A DNA stretch of 64,000 nt from an uncultured delta proteobacterium (GTDB taxonomy: Bacteria; Desulfobacterota; Syntrophorhabdia; Syntrophorhabdales; WCHB1-27), in assembly GCA_963810935.1 (NCBI GenBank), contig CAWEPK010000007.1, positions 369,811 through 433,810 of the forward strand, read 5' to 3'. This document shows, piece by piece, positions 30,001-51,000 of this stretch (the first letter of the stretch is position 1; each line of letters begins with the position of its first letter). The position numbers are program-made.

Positions 30001-33000
30001 GTAAAGGCTATATATTCTCCTGTGGGCGAGAATCGTGGATAGCGGTTTTCTGAGGGATAACTACCTTCCGGGGTGAGCAGGGTTGTAGTGGCCTTTGGTC
30101 CCATCCCTGAAGTTATCCATATCCGGCCTTCGCCTGCGTAAGCGATCTCATCGTTAACCGACATATCTGAATCGTTGAAGTTTGGTTTGCGGACAGGAGG
30201 CGGGGCAATGGGTACTTTCTCTTCGGTGAACCCGGTTTTTGCGTTGAGCCGTCTTAGGCGTCGGTCCTTCCCAAACCAGTAAATACCTTCCGGCCGGGCC
30301 TTGACACCATCCAGGTAGTCGTCAGACCTGCGGAGGATCGACTTGATCAACCTGCCCCGGTTGTCGTAGATTTCGACCCCTCGCTTGCCTTTTCCTTGCT
30401 TGATAACGAAATTCCCCATAAGTTGATAATCAGGGATAATTTTGTCGCGCCTACCGTGCCTGACGCCAAGAATAAAGTAGCTTCCATCACTTGCCCAGTT
30501 GACGTCAGACTCGTAGTCCCGCCTGCGGCCGTTTTTGGGGAAGTAAAGGACGTTCCAGCCGGGTAAGTCGTACTTCTTCGAGCCCTAGATAATTTTTTTG
30601 TCCAGACATACAACTGCAAGCGTCTTTTCCGTGGGGGATGGAGCTATCTCGGGGCCGTTGCCGACAATGTCGGTAATCGAGCCTGCTTCACGCGTCTTGC
30701 CCGTTCGTGCGTCAATCTCCCATAGTCCCACTGTGTGCGGACCCCCTGGATCGCCCTGTGCCCCCATCTGAATATTGAAGAAGACGCTGGAGCCGTCAAA
30801 GCCTGCAGAAGTGGTCGAACGCGACGAGCAGCCCGTACGCAGCATTCGTCCGTTTGCCCGTTGCCACATCGACGAGGAGAATACCGCCCGTGCCCTCGCC
30901 CTCGTTGGGGACAGCAAGGCAAGTTTTCCCGCACCACCGGGGCGCCCGGGTACTCCAGTTCATGATTTCGAGTATGCCTACCTGTTTCCACCCGCCGCCG
31001 TACTCGGCCCGGTCCGTGTCAGAAGCGTGGCACAGACTAAATGCAACGAGTGTGCACGCTGCTGCGAAACTGATTATGCGATTGATTCGTTTGTTCATCT
31101 TCTCCCCGGCCCTTCTTTCAGCAGTTCTCTCATAAAGACTCCCCCACGGCCGACTTTCTTCCCGTCCCCGGCCGATTTTGCAAGGATATCCCTTTCATAC
31201 CACTATGTCAAAGCGACAACCAGGGGTGACAACCAGACATGACATGGAGAGGTGACATGGAGGGGTGACAGAAAGCACGTCCGGAATTGTTTTTCATTTT
31301 CTTTTGTTCTAAGTCTTGCCATAGTGGTAATACTGTGTGACGCCTGATCGGGCCTCGGCGTCTTGCGGGGTCTCGATGCGGTCGAAGGGATACGTGCTAT
31401 GCACCGGAGGGACGTTGAACGCCGCCGCGAAGCGCAGGAAGCAGACGTGCTCCGTCGCGTGCCGTTATCGTGTTTGAAGCCGCGCGAAAAAACTTTGAAA
31501 AAAATTTAAATCATGCAAATTGTCACCCCTGGTTGTCACCCCTCCTTGTCACTCCTCCATGTCACCCCTGGTTGTCACTTTGACAGGTTTTGCCGCCTGC
31601 AATAAGCTTCTCTCCATGAACACGGCGCAGAAGAAAAAAACCCATGGAGGAGAAGGTAAAGGCAGGCGGCGGGCGGGCGTTGTCAGGGGCTTACGAGGGC
31701 TTCATCGCGCGGCTCGAAGAGCGCATCCCCGACGACCTCCTTGTGGACCAGCTGGAGCGGGAGTTGCGTCTGGGCGGCGAGACTCCGGACCTGAAGGAGA
31801 TGTCGATCAGGCAGAAGGCGCGGCAGGACGTCGAGGCGCACAAGGGCTACAAGCGCGCGGGCGGCCAGGACTCAGACCGCAAAGGCGGGAATACGCTCAT
31901 CGTCAGGATCGTCCGGTTCTCGGAGGTGAAACATGGCGGCAAATAGAGCGCGGACAAAACCCGCACAAGCCGCGGGCAGCGCATCGGCGCGTCGCGCTCC
32001 GGCCGCTAAACCGAGGGGCCGGAAAGCCCCCGTCCCCGCAGACGCCCCTGTCATCACGCTGCCCCTCGACTGGACCCCGCGCCCCGACCAGCGCTCCCTT
32101 TGGGACTATCTTGAGTCAGGCGGGAAGCGGGCCGTGATGGTGGCGCACAGGCGGTGGGGCAAGGACGAGGTGGGCCTCCACTTTGCGGCAGTCGCGGCAG
32201 TGCAGCGGCCGGGCAACTACTGGCACATGCTGCCCCAGTACGGCCAGGCGCGGCGCGTCATCTGGGAGGCGGTAAACCCGCGCACGGGCCGCCGCCGCAT
32301 CGACGAGGCGTTTCCCCACGAGATCAGGCGCAGGACCATCGACGGCGAGATGCTGATCGAGCTTGCGAACGGCTCGACGTGGCAGCTCGTCGGCTCCGAC
32401 AATTTCGATTCCCTCGTCGGCTCGCCCCCTGTCGGCATCGTCTTCTCCGAGTACGCCCTGGCCGACCCGATGGCGTGGGCCTATTTCCGTCCGATCCTCG
32501 CGGAGAACGGCGGGTGGGCGCTCTTCATTTATACCCCGCGCGGGCGCAACCACGGCAAGACGCTCTACGACTTCGCACGCAGCGAGGAAGGATGGTTCAG
32601 CCAGGTCTTGTCCGCCGCAGACACGCCGGTCTTCGACGCCGTGCGTCCTCGATCGGGAGCGGCGCGAGCTGTGCGCGGAGTTCGGCGAAACCGAAGGCGA
32701 GTTGCTCTACCTTCAGGAATACCAATGCTCCTTCGAGGGGATGGTGCACGGCGCGTATTACGCGAAGCAGCTTGCCGCGGCGCGCTCCGAAGGGCGCATC
32801 GGCCCGGTCCCGCACGCGGCCGGCCACGAGGTCTACACCTTCTGGGACTTGGGCATGGACGATTCGACGTCCATCTGGTTCATGCAGGCGATAGGGCGCG
32901 AGCTGCGCTTCATCGACTATTACGAGGCCGCGGGCGAGGGGCTTGCCCACTACGCTACGGTCCTGAAAGGCAAGCCCTACGTCTACGGCGACCACTACAT

Positions 33001-48000: not shown

Positions 48001-51000
48001 GCACTACCTGCCGCCCGAAGCGATGGCAATTCTATGCCTACTGCTTATGGCATGGGTGGTCTTCGAAAACTGGCTGGCGAAGACGGGGAAGATCAAGGCG
48101 AACTGCACGCTCGACCTCATCACGAAGGGATGGATCGCCCCGATTGCGGCAATCCTGAAAGGGATGGTGGGCAAGGATGGAGGAATCATGGCTGGGCTGG
48201 ATCGACAGGCTTTGCCGGGCAGCACAGGAGAGCCCGCAGCCGCGGGCGCCGGAGAATCCGGCGGAAGAGCTGGATCGAAAGATGCAGGCGGTGTCGGGGG
48301 ACAAGGAGGCGGAGGTACACCTGTCAGTTCTTAACGTTACGTGGTAACAACGCCTGCGGGCGTATCAAACGCAAGGAGGGTTTATGAGCTTTCTTGACAC
48401 GATATGGACGAAGATGAAGGAGATTTTCAGCGAGATCGCGACATTCTGCGGGCCTTTCCTGAAGCAGTTCGAGACGCAGGTGGGGCCTGTGGTACTGGCT
48501 GCGGCGGAACAGGCTGTGGGGGCCCTGGCCACTTCCGAGATGCCGGGCGCGAGTAAACAGACCGCGGCCTTCGGGCAGATCACGGACAACCTGAAAACAC
48601 AGGGCATCACCGTCGCCGCGTCGGTCGTCAACAGCGCCATAGAGGCGGCGGTTGCGAAGCTCAAATCGGACGCGGACACTGCGGGTGCTGCACAGGGGTA
48701 GAGTGGCAAAGTAACAAAAGCGGAAGGGACCGGGCGCGACACATCGGTCCGGTCCCTTCAAAATCTTCCCTTACACATGGAATAATTTCCGCATCACTTA
48801 AGTCTTTATTTTAGTCTTTATTCTTGAGCAACGCCCGTGATAGAATCTGCCCGGTTGGGGTTCTGGTGCAGTGGAAGGCGGCGGGTTTTCGGCCGTCCTT
48901 TCAGTCGCTCTAGCTTTATACGGGGTGGGGTTGATGACTGTCTGGTTTCTGGCGGCATTTCACCTGTTGCTTCTGTTGTTCCTGCTCAAGTCCGACGCAC
49001 CCCGGAAGCGACCGGACCCCTTCTTCGACAAACAGCCCTGGAAGTCTTACGACGTCCTCATCGTGACGGCGATGAACGCCGCTTTTCTCGTCGGCCTTAT
49101 TGCGCTCCGTACTTCGCCGCTGCTCAACTTCTACCTGTCGAGCAACAAGTCCGCCCTGGACGTAATCTTCCTCCTTTGCCTGGTCGCGTATATAAAACTG
49201 CGGCATCAGGACCTGTCGGTCTTAGGCCGCGAGCCCGGTGCGTATATCACCATCCTGGTGCTGGTTGCGTGCCTCGGCTCCCTCGTTCCTTTCTTCCTGA
49301 GCGTGCCCGGCGTTGCTTTCGCCGTGAGGAACGTAATGATACGGATGCACATTGTGGGGCAGTCGGTGCAGTCCATCAGGTTCCTCTCCGCCGCGATCGT
49401 GATAGACAACTGGTGGAGCGCCATCATCGTTGCCCCTCTCGTCGAGGAGACTTTGCTGCGCGGCATTGCGTACGCTCCTTTCCGCAGGAAATACGGGCCG
49501 GCGGCGGCGGTGATCATAAACGCTTTGATGTTTTTCTCGGCGCACCTTAGCTTGAACGTTGTGCCTCTTGCCTACGGCTTTCTGCTGTCCTCGTTGTACG
49601 AGAAGAGCCGGTCGTTTGTTGCGGTGGTGCTGGTCCACGCTCTGTTGAATGCGATCCTGCTTGTGATGTACGGGTAGTGCAGAGAACTTGCGGGCGACCG
49701 GATTGCGGCCTATTTCCCTATGCAGAACCTGCTGAATATCTCGGCGAGGACTTCCTCGGTCGCCGTCTCGCCCGTGATAACGCCCAGGTGGAACAGGGCG
49801 TCGCGCAGCTCGAAGGCGCACAGCTCGGCCCGTTCCTCCCGCCCGGCGCATGGTTCAGCGCGGGCAAGGGCAGCCTCGGTGGCCATGAGCGCGTCCCTGT
49901 GCCGGACGTTCGTGACGAGCAGCGCCGCGCCCCTGTGGCCTGCACCCACGAAGGTCTCGTAGAGCGCACCTTTCAGGCCGCCGAGGCCTGAGGCGTCGAT
50001 TGCGCAGGTGGCTACGGCGCGTATGCCTTTCGCCGCAACTGCGCGTGCCGGCCCATCCGCTTGCGGCAGGTCCGACTTGTTGAGGCAGGCTATGACCGTC
50101 TTCCCGGCTGCGGTGCGCCAGACTTCCTCGTCATCGTCCTCATACGGCCGCGATGCATCGAGCACCCACAGCACGATATCGGCTTCAGGCATCTTTTTCT
50201 TGACGCGCTCCATGCCCTCTGCCTCGATGGCGTCTGACGGTTGCCCCAGACCCGCCGTGTCGGTGAGGACGAATTTAACCCCGCCGATGCGCAGCGTATC
50301 TTCGACGAGGTCGCGCGTGGTGCCGGGGATGTCCGTAACGATGGCGCGGTCCCTGTCGACCAGCGCATTCAGGATGCTCGATTTGCCTACGTTCCTTTTG
50401 CCCGCGATCAGGACGTCCACGCCCCGCGTCACTGCCCTGCCTTCTTCGTAGGTGGCGGCCAGCGCCGCGATGTCGCGCCGCACCGCATCGATGGCCGCGC
50501 TGCGCGCCCCCGCGATGTTCGCTCCCGCGCCGGGTCCATCGGATAATTCTTCTTCGGGGAAATCTATCTCTGCCTCGACGTCCGCAAGGAGCGCGGTGAT
50601 CGCGCCCTTTGCCGCGCTTAGGCGGCCGGAGAGGGCGCCTTTGACGTGGGCGAGCGCGGACGCCAGCTCCTCGGCGCTCTCGCTCTGGATGATGTCGAGG
50701 ACCGATTCGGCCTGGGCGAGGTCGATGCGGCCGTTCTCGAACGCGCGCCTCGTGAACTCACCGGGCTCTGCCAGGCGCGCGCCGCGCCGCGCGAGCAGGG
50801 CAAGGACGGCCTTTTGCGCGGCCCGGCCGCCGTGCGTGTAGACCTCTGCCATCTCCTCGCGCGTGTAAGTGCGGGGAGGTTTCATGAAGACGGCGAAGAC
50901 TTCATCCACGTCCGAGCCTGCGTCGGGGTCGAAGATGAAGCCGAGGTAGAGGCGGTGCGAGGCGAAGGAGCGGCTGCGCTTTCGCGCCCTGAACACGCCG

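Follow-up and report, generated by a model that had tools for sequence, protein, structure and literature searches.

A probably domesticated P22-like virion gene block behind a conserved repeat-array promoter in three genera of Desulfobacterota

A P22-like late operon between conserved host genes

The window analyzed here is a stretch of 64,000 nucleotides from contig CAWEPK010000007.1 (assembly GCA_963810935.1) of an uncultured Desulfobacterota bacterium of WCHB1-27. Between two host landmarks it carries a block of short-tailed phage virion genes. The features, in window positions, are as follows.

22076..23210 (−): THUMP methyltransferase, host gene and left landmark; frameshifted in the present assembly
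24660..29884 (−): M23 peptidase part (29501-29884) and glucosaminidase part (24660-25838)
31207..31271 (−): second, divergent array copy with −35, facing left (inverted repeat I1/I2)
31520..31608 (+): five 13-bp repeats (W-TGTCAC-N6) abutting −35/−10, the terS promoter
31616..31946 (+): terS, candidate small terminase, helical, about 110 aa once the extra assembly base is removed
31906..33383 (+): terL, large terminase (phrog_2/2472), with two single-base assembly insertions
33377..35521 (+): P22-like portal, 714 aa (PF16510, E 4.5e-161)
36300..37310 (+): head scaffolding protein (phrog_8865)
37314..38570 (+): P22-type coat protein, 418 aa (PF11651, phrog_283)
38629..39363 (+): gp4-like head-tail adaptor, Ad3 (phrog_12985, phrog_637)
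39377..40888 (+): gp10-like head closure or tail hub, Hc3 (phrog_578, E 2.9e-101)
40885..41689 (+): 81-aa ORF (putative needle or plug, from its position) and GNAT-like ORF (gp14-like by position)
41691..42527 (+): gp7-like DNA ejection protein, 278 aa (phrog_598, E 1.9e-23)
42545..43309 (+): shortened gp20-like ejection protein, 254 aa (synteny and weak BLAST links)
43311..44747 (+): tail fibre with collar domain (PF07484)
44785..47428 (+): variable fibre-associated ORFs
47430..48701 (+): lysis cassette of a 66-aa ORF, transglycosylase endolysin, and holin (phrog_873, phrog_2609, PF09682)
49710..54599 (−): mnmE-jag-yidC-rnpA, host genes and right landmark (common to G012, G013, and G020; mnmE also in L111)

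The gene order and families reported in the genome-wide survey's note were recovered from terL through Hc3, as were the ejection gene, collar fibre, endolysin, and holin. The integration, immunity, and replication modules of a P22-like temperate phage are absent. In a PHROGs search of 40 ORFs (25975-53766), the sole integration match was an IS1 transposase outside the block, in agreement with the note. No att-like repeats were found flanking the block. The nearest coats in IMG/VR are 90-91% identical, where 73-83% was given earlier for the nearest contigs, and the nearest GenBank phage coats share 35-41% identity with the block coat. A literature search with coverage short of subscription papers and bioRxiv supplements found no paper on the locus.

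The terS start was corrected from 31644 to 31616, and three of four short-read runs lack the extra base at 31651. The two terL indels were likewise confirmed as absent from short-read contigs of one study (33123 in all four runs, 32639/32642 in three of the four), and two indels in the fibre-associated ORFs are also missing there. In L086, a close copy, terL has intact ATPase and nuclease motifs. The terS candidate is a distant relative of 102-149-aa phage genes preceding terL, and TerS ranges from 83 to 115 aa among copies; its short length is therefore not a derived trait, because the phage relatives are equally short. A fold search with its helical model gave no match, which carries no information at so low a confidence (pLDDT 60), and for neither TerS nor the 254-aa gp20-like protein did ESM Atlas return a named family.

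The tail fibre gene runs on into the first 29 codons of an ATP-grasp-like gene that is otherwise deleted here. To the left, the M23 and glucosaminidase parts flank an IS-like insert of 3.7 kb (25763-29530) whose inverted ends are 23 nt long; the two parts match an array-driven 526-aa M23-glucosaminidase gene of G013 at 54% and may represent one split peptidoglycan hydrolase in a left-facing operon.

A conserved repeat array precedes terS and other loci

The terS promoter has a −35 element (TTGACA, 31580-31585) directly after the array and a −10 element (TAAGCT, 31603-31608), and its transcript is probably leaderless. The array and promoter precede terS in all 21 loci having DNA upstream of terS, and every site has the same layout: array, −35, 17 bp, −10, and ATG at +31/+32. 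Among 96 genomes, the array pattern was detected in 12, exactly those of genera g1, g2, and g5, and the reversed control in none. Chromosomes carry from 1 to 57 copies. Besides terS, arrays precede phage-tail-lysozyme genes in G013 and G020, an operon containing such a gene in G001, the M23-glucosaminidase operon in G013, a TerS-like HTH gene in seven of the eight clade loci shown, an AAA_13 ATPase (third array of G000), and an HTH remnant with a PHP+AAA gene (G006). In g2, most copies are part of a dispersed non-coding repeat, and the array is therefore more than a regulon of the particle.

No phage late region was found to carry the array; its three matches in viral_contigs comprise this block twice and, once, the host-like flank of a Mu-like prophage. 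Rfam gave no match in five array-bearing loci. No regulator gene common to all carriers was found; the array-led HTH gene was rejected for this role, as it was not found in G000, G012, or G013. Arrays as Mu-like ends were discarded as well, given a Mu-like transposase in none of 22 family genomes and a −10 consensus at 17 bp in the bases beyond the array. In phages of Gram-positive bacteria, direct repeats upstream of terS are sites of Ltr activators (PMC3753634). Direct repeats stand before terS here too, but the Ltr-type activator is encoded beside its repeats, whereas the block has no adjacent activator gene.

The block descends with its hosts under purifying selection

Pieces of the block are present in 12 of 12 genomes of the sister genera g1, g2, and g5, at one orthologous locus with a THUMP and/or mnmE flank. 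The coat is found in 10 of 22 family genomes and in all seven of g2, as reported before; in the g3, g4, and g6 loci read, no block genes lie beside THUMP. The caveat that some copies sit at other sites is weakened, as in G012 and G020 the right half of the copy adjoins mnmE-jag-yidC, like that in the window. The claim of an identical gene order fails for several copies (G002, L040/L067, L042, and L039 are shuffled).

In the terL tree, host-site copies form one clade (support 1.0) that contains no sampled phage and is split by host genus. Distances correlate with those of THUMP (Mantel r 0.89 for terL, 0.86 for portal, and 0.60 for coat), a test with one host gene that is mostly adjacent to the block. 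Purifying selection was upheld (dN/dS mostly 0.1-0.25 in core genes). Synonymous divergence like that of the host neighbor was borne out in g1, but in g2 terL dS is 1.1-2.6 times THUMP dS in the seven more distant pairs with G003 or G005; two strains at THUMP dS 0 differ by coat dS 0.46. In g1, copies with an identically cut gp20 and without gp16 have since diverged to dS 0.1-1.3 at dN/dS 0.04-0.23 (terL, portal, coat, adaptor, hub, gp14-like, and gp7-like), which argues for selection after loss of infectivity. Taken with the conserved promoter array, which strengthens them, these data support the earlier view of vertical inheritance, a single origin, purifying selection, and host-side control. 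A 2014 study by Bobay reportedly described orthologous defective prophages under purifying selection. Such enterobacterial prophages are found within a species or genus, whereas the block spans three genera.

Ejection genes are lost and many copies are broken

The three-protein ejection set of P22-like phages (gp7, gp20, and gp16) is incomplete in the block. The gp20-like protein has 254 aa, compared with 472-606 aa in phage relatives, and no gp16-like gene follows it. Unlike in six phage relatives, the gp16-like gene is lacking in 14 of 17 copies, and the gp20-like gene is usually cut; across copies, the ejection genes are eroded stepwise from 912 to 0 residues. In 20 of 22 family genomes, profiles matched nothing gp16-like, and tblastn with phage and host ejection proteins, together with phrog_770, found none of the missing genes elsewhere in the G000 assembly. 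Longer relatives of the 254-aa protein were also sought without result, which is weak evidence. The G002/G103 lineage retains ejection genes of 427 and 485 aa. Since gp16 is absent and gp20 is cut, a P22-type channel could not be finished, and on the best reading of the sequences the particle would be unable to inject DNA as P22 does. In the absence of gp16, P22 assembles a channel in the periplasm and may let its DNA out there (bioRxiv 10.64898/2026.09.03.749273).

Core genes carry about three times as many frameshifts per 1000 aa as flanking host genes (1.5 versus 0.46; 35/23377 versus 27/58324), and an excess persists without G012 (0.85 versus 0.33, p 0.005). By the state of the core, the 12 clade genomes divide into three clean ones (G003, G020, and, with short reads considered, G000), five with clear damage (G001, G002, G007, G012, and G013), three doubtful ones (G004, G005, and G006), and G011, where the core was unseen. 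The coat frameshift of the G002 lineage recurs in four assemblies. The capsid module is deleted in five loci and replaced in G013, which carries T7-like internal-virion genes. An identical portal-to-ATP-grasp deletion occurs in at least three lineages. Its reciprocal, excised-circle junction was found in 0 of 293 sequences and, like the fusion junction, nowhere in viral_contigs; unique microhomology was rejected as the cause (in L036, 18/36 matching bases are reached by 0.5% of position pairs). L039 and L111 have a different terS-terL behind the same promoter, and L039/L109/L111 and G009/L145 fall in other terL or portal clades. Modules are thus exchanged with other phage lineages, and part of the low dN/dS may therefore come from phages.

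A host-regulated viriform and its alternatives

We consider it probable that the block is a host-regulated, domesticated P22-like viriform, GTA-like in how it makes particles and packages DNA. Many lineages are losing it. A P22-like temperate phage would have settled once in the ancestor of the three sister genera and lost integration, immunity, and replication, its late operon being retained by the host behind the array promoter. By analogy with Ltr late activators, a signal may lead a factor to bind the 13-bp array and switch on a leaderless terS-to-holin transcript together with the other array-led loci (peptidoglycan hydrolases and the TerS-like HTH gene). The cell would then build short-tailed heads, fill them by headful, presumably with chromosomal DNA because the locus cannot replicate or excise, and lyse. 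The benefit could be delivery of DNA to the periplasm for ComEC uptake, to which we give about half of the weight of this reading, or a non-transducing role as a PBSX-like killer, decoy, or means of DNA release. With the inner-membrane ejection protein lost, the block would encode a tamed particle system, whether or not genes are transferred by it. ComEC is present in 20 of 22 family genomes, equally common in genera without the block, and DprA is present in G000. Only if the particles deliver DNA to the periplasm for ComEC, as RcGTA does, would the block count as a GTA. Quite tentatively, it might be the first GTA gene set of podoviral type from a diderm, with the injector repeatedly shed because host DNA is dropped into the periplasm for ComEC, a lineage-specific 13-bp repeat promoter that runs a dispersed regulon and whose copies are maybe packaging starts, and the precise, repeatable capsid-module deletion producing non-producers.

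The block could instead be a long-resident cryptic prophage that is slowly decaying. Repeated overwriting by related infecting phages would then make its genes seem conserved, and its particle would serve no host function. Such decay would account for the surplus of frameshifts, insertions of IS elements and repeats, disturbed gene order, deleted capsid modules, exchanged modules, the T7-like genes of G013, and the eroding ejection genes. We regard this as unlikely, since no sampled phage nests inside the terL clade, each of the three genera still has intact cores at dS >1, and all 21 loci preserve the non-coding array and its distance from the ATG. Independent integration of related prophages at a hotspot, with the arrays as transposon ends, could draw on the copies in other terL or portal clades, on arrays that are sometimes back to back, and on the one at the end of a Mu-like record; the shared terS junction, trees congruent with genus, absence of att repeats and of Mu-like transposases, and −10 consensus beyond the array largely refute it.

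The arrays could instead answer an infecting phage, whose late activator would bind them to release ejection-defective virion parts that poison assembly, lysis enzymes, and defence genes. Loss of gp16 would then be the purpose; that no regulator gene common to all carriers was found would fit, as would the arrays before the AAA_13, HTH-remnant, and PHP+AAA genes, and the stand-alone TerS-like genes presumably resemble satellite modules. Such a phage-triggered, satellite-like system seems improbable, with the array in no phage late region among the viral_contigs matches. Still harder to uphold is a classical, fully competent GTA with its own trans-envelope channel, encoded here or elsewhere. 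Fast-diverging ejection proteins could escape detection and the G002/G103 lineage keeps two such genes, but gp16-like profile matches are missing as described and that same lineage bears the coat frameshift.

Outside Alphaproteobacteria, GTAs are nearly unknown at gene level and indistinguishable from dead prophages. The domesticated viriform favored here would give concrete genomic signs of a short-tailed GTA in the phylum of the long-orphaned, short-tailed Dd1: a conserved element for its control, other loci regulated along with it, and an inner-membrane ejection protein that is lost directionally. From that loss follows a sharp prediction, namely that delivery is periplasmic, depends on ComEC, or does not take place at all. 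The locus would also capture domestication and loss in progress over three genera and, if non-transducing, would be a podoviral counterpart of PBSX.

Comparison with gene transfer agents and related phages

Six GTA features are named in PMC9662315: particle proteins from a caudoviricete, encapsidation of mostly random host DNA, full endogenization, often at several loci, a head too small for its own loci, vertical co-diversification, and DNA delivery to other cells. The particle proteins of the block are of caudoviricete origin. Genomic evidence indicates full endogenization, with array-led hydrolase and TerS-like loci elsewhere, and inheritance is vertical by one host marker, module swaps excepted. 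The coat is full length, like those of phage records up to 44-47 kb, so a P22-size head would hold the 17-29-kb block. With gp16-like genes absent in 14 of 17 copies, only periplasmic delivery plus ComEC remains as a route. The survey's identification as a GTA is thus not established, given this loss in most copies and the whole G000 assembly, the many copies that are broken or lack the capsid module, and the exchange of modules with other phages.

With Salmonella phage P22 and P22-like podoviruses (PMC8954989; bioRxiv 10.64898/2026.09.03.749273), the block shares portal, coat, adaptor, hub, a gp7-like gene, and their order; it differs in lacking integrase, repressor, replication, and gp16-like genes, in its cut gp20-like gene, and in having lysis genes after the fibre. 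PBSX of Bacillus subtilis (PMC12946183) is also a host-kept defective prophage that may package but not inject DNA; unlike the block, it is a contractile-tail killer. RcGTA (Rhodogtaviriformidae; PMC9662315, PMC7296036, and PMC10883770) resembles the block in vertical co-divergence, several loci, and losses or pseudogenes in many lineages. It delivers DNA to the periplasm with competence proteins (PMC7296036), to which a ComEC/DprA route might correspond here, but its siphoviral origin, small oblate head, and known regulators set it apart, and no homology is expected. Dd1 of Desulfovibrio desulfuricans is a GTA of the same phylum, represented in PMC6854486 (Table 1) and PMC11841831 only by a predicted terS (Ddes_0720). 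A TerS without a DNA-binding domain is a GTA trait in the same two papers.

The earlier statement that no GTA genes are known for this morphotype does not stand, as PMC12946183 describes podoviral GTA genes in FpGTA of Faecalibacterium prausnitzii. Like the block, FpGTA is chromosomal, with podovirus-like head and short-tail genes, lysis genes, a short TerS (in FpGTA without obvious DNA-binding domain), near-ubiquity in its host clade, and unproven delivery. Its particles have been shown, with 8.4-8.9 kb of host DNA, in a Gram-positive host, and it has two operons. Going by these descriptions, the block is set apart by its diderm Desulfobacterota host, a single stretch of 17-29 kb, eroded ejection genes, and the repeat-array promoter.

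The block and its surroundings in the window

The P22-like virion gene cluster (here, the block) and the features around it are as follows.

31.6 to 48.7 kb, + strand: block, encoding terL, P22 portal, scaffold, P22 coat, Ad3 adaptor, Hc3 hub, gp7-like ejection protein, collar-domain fiber, endolysin, and holin
31616: start of terS
35523-35691 and 21530-21658: REP-like repeat, first copy between portal and scaffold; about 91 BLAST matches in the genome carrying the window (G000) and very high depth in runs
25763-29530: IS-like insert of low GC (about 0.50) bounded by 23-nt inverted ends; it carries an IS1 transposase gene, DUF3800, and hypothetical genes and splits a peptidoglycan hydrolase gene
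7505-9479, 15552-19017, and 22076-23210: Mur ligase fusion, Big_5 protein, and THUMP genes, split by frameshifts

A PHROGs scan of the 40 open reading frames of 25975-53766 returned no integrase, repressor, or replication protein, and one IS1 transposase outside the block. No att-like repeats flanking the block were found. Frameshifts also split host genes of the G000 assembly (THUMP and Mur ligase), indicating indel errors, and two terL indels and one terS indel are missing from the short-read contigs of a single study (four runs). The block core is therefore probably intact in G000. A real loss is the deletion of an ATP-grasp-like gene, of which 29 codons remain, fused to the fiber gene. Its fold, which we presume from its motifs, comes with neither a Pfam nor a PHROG match. 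The 416-aa gene is conserved in the virion module of L036 (11633-12883) and of phage records G097, G098, and G102, beside glycosyltransferase, methyltransferase, and radical SAM genes; together these are possibly a capsid or fiber modification pathway.

The block is found at a host site in three genera

Among the 22 family genomes, portal and ATP-grasp-like queries each matched 12 and coat matched 10; combined, they located pieces of the block in all 12 genomes of genera g1 (four), g2 (seven), and g5 (one). Genus g3 has a single remnant, in G009, belonging to another clade, and g4 and g6 gave no match to these queries. In six g2 genomes, terS points away from the host gene THUMP across a gap of about 0.15 to 1.2 kb; G013 has a gap of 4.4 kb and the window one of 8.4 kb. 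The THUMP contig of G001 stops at the terS promoter. Left neighbors differ in G012 and G020, and their right halves adjoin mnmE-jag-yidC, as in the window and G013. The THUMP link is seen again in metagenome loci L085-L091, L101, and L103.

In a terL tree (90 rows, at least 75% cover), the host-site copies form one clade with support of 1.0 and no phages inside, subdivided into g1, an L103 group, g5, and g2; the coat tree gave the same picture with weaker support. Mantel correlations with THUMP tree distances were 0.89 for terL (n = 16), 0.86 for portal (n = 14), and 0.60 for coat (n = 12), with three near-duplicate rows removed, for a single host gene that is mostly adjacent to the block and among kin that are not independent.

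A repeat-array promoter precedes terS

Immediately 5′ of terS, in all 21 loci having such DNA (about 15 distinct lineages), lies an array of five to seven 13-bp repeats, the last ending TTTGAC(A/G), followed by 17 bp and a −10 element, NANNNT. The terS ATG stands 31 to 32 bases past TTTGAC, implying a predicted leaderless transcript. Of 96 genomes of the order, the 12 with this pattern, at 1 to 57 copies each, are precisely the carriers; a reversed control pattern had no match in the 96. Conservation of the −10 A and T (81% and 85% of 47 distinct sites) argues that these sites are promoters and not transposon ends. Mu-like transposon ends were considered and rejected: one 42.6-kb Mu-like prophage record (L255-L256, G106) carries an array of the host type on its left edge, and its transposase is unmatched in the family. 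Three records of viral_contigs contain the pattern, none in a phage late region. Ltr late activators of Gram-positive phages bind direct repeats before terS (PMC3753634); by analogy, the array is a putative activator site.

Arrays also lead other genes. Phage-tail-lysozyme genes lie behind them in G013 and G020 and as the third gene of an operon in G001, and an M23-glucosaminidase operon does so in G013; the window's left-facing array leads toward an IS-split relative of that M23-glucosaminidase gene. A TerS-like HTH gene (135 to 143 aa) and then a 65-aa gene (L248:6370-7001, L247:210-829, L259-L266) are array led in seven of the eight clade loci listed; this HTH gene was not found in G000, G012, or G013. 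The 65-aa gene product is similar in its middle to the C-terminal strand of TerS from the block. The third G000 array precedes a frameshifted AAA_13 ATPase gene (L211:9789-12236, contig C12), which we take to be RloC-like and which is possibly a defense gene. Genus g2 has a dispersed noncoding family consisting of the array, the promoter, and ~135 conserved nt ending CTCTTTGACAATTGAG, with up to ~57 array sites per genome (e.g., L215, L227, L238, L012:17061-17270). It has no Rfam match and is possibly a small RNA or MITE.

Ejection genes are eroded in host-bound copies

Past the gp7-like gene, six phage or phage-like relatives (G096, G097, G098, G102, G104, and G105, the first three with replication genes) encode 1133 to 2430 residues, sums compiled by hand from per-locus readings. 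One of these proteins matches DNA transfer family phrog_770, and BLAST links it to the others. In the 17 host-bound copies with this region read, the gp7-like gene is retained in 16, while the gp16-like gene is missing from 14, truncated in 2, and 485 aa in one lineage. The gp20-like gene is 111 to 119 aa in five g2-type copies, 243 to 255 aa in g1-type copies, and absent from G007 and G020. A gp16 profile matched 2 of 22 family genomes, with no gp16-like match elsewhere in G000 (93% complete). The gp20 and gp16 labels are putative assignments from synteny and weak similarity.

Infectivity requires ejection proteins (PMC8954989). According to bioRxiv 10.64898/2026.09.03.749273, gp16 alone spans the inner membrane in P22, and without it the gp7-gp20 periplasmic channel is kept and DNA release into the periplasm is possible. 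RcGTA delivers into the periplasm and depends on competence proteins (PMC7296036 and PMC10883770). From these parallels, gp16 loss would rule out ordinary transduction and would be compatible with a periplasm-delivering gene transfer agent (GTA) or a non-delivering particle. ComEC is present in 20 of 22 family genomes, irrespective of the block.

Constraint, exchange, and recurrent deletion

NG86 dN/dS values were mostly 0.1 to 0.25 for terL, portal, coat, adaptor, hub, and gp7-like genes, about 0.2 to 0.45 for scaffold, and 0.26 to 0.57 for shortened gp20-like genes. Genus g1 is the most telling case: among copies that already share a cut gp20 and lack gp16, the core is constrained (dN/dS, 0.04 to 0.23 at dS of 0.1 to 1.3).

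Against a clean vertical picture, terL dS in g2 is 1.1 to 2.6 times THUMP dS in seven pairs. Between G002 and L088, THUMP dS is 0, yet coat and scaffold dS are 0.46 and 0.75, and L039, L109, and L111 have different terS-terL genes. Modules of the block are being replaced. In G013, coat-to-hub genes are deleted, with T7-like internal virion genes in their place; this same-site segment (L021:8338-17981) also holds T7-like tail and fiber genes and a zeta-toxin-domain open reading frame.

By a rough control in the same ten genomes, core frameshifts number 1.5 per 1000 aa versus 0.46 in flanking host genes (0.85 versus 0.33 with G012, which has 17, left out). In G001, terL is truncated and coat is broken; in G007, terL is interrupted by a 500-bp insert. 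Four assemblies of the G002 lineage show a frameshift in coat, and gene order in this lineage is shuffled. Losses and pseudogenes are also reported for alphaproteobacterial GTAs (PMC10883770).

Five loci carry an identical in-frame deletion: portal codon 150 is fused, at the same base in each, to codon ~180 of the ATP-grasp-like gene, and the whole capsid-to-ejection module between them is gone.

L024:954-2066, L091:11309-12430, L111:1161-2282, L121:800-1924, L145:703-1827: portal/ATP-grasp-like fusion

Both fusion halves group with different intact elements, which points to at least three origins. One deletion locus has a THUMP dS only 0.03 from an intact strain. Exact microhomology is only 3 to 4 nt, the resemblance between the joined sites is nothing out of the ordinary, and a search for the reciprocal junction found none. 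The deletion may be programmed, or the fusion may be under selection.

Interpretation and relation to known systems

The genomic data probably reflect a domesticated particle operon under host regulation, one that packages DNA of the chromosome, lyses the cell, and lacks P22-type injection. Once expressed, the operon would fill particles with chromosomal DNA, and its lysis genes would lyse the cell; the particles could then serve periplasmic gene transfer or a non-transducing use, which we judge about equally plausible. A decaying remnant refreshed by phages is an unlikely reading, with the frameshift excess and module replacement on its side and, against it, the phage-free terL clade and the array kept in 21 of 21 loci. 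We think it improbable that the block is a phage-triggered defense or satellite; the array-led AAA_13 gene speaks for this reading, and the lack of any array in a phage late region of viral_contigs speaks against it. A fully competent classical GTA, against which the eroded ejection genes count, seems very improbable, and repeated integration at one site, with genus-congruent trees and the lack of att-like repeats against it, is hardly credible.

The block had been proposed in the genome-wide survey's note as a podoviral GTA. It shows, on genomic grounds, three of the six GTA features in PMC9662315, two others being experimental in nature and one genomically ambiguous, so we do not class it as a GTA. 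The literature searched (main texts) yielded no paper on this locus. Podovirus-like GTA operons are already known from FpGTA (PMC12946183), and terS of Dd1 was predicted earlier (PMC6854486). New in the block are its host, a diderm of the Desulfobacterota; a regulon led by repeat arrays; the loss, in one direction, of an ejection gene for the inner membrane; and a precise deletion that recurs.
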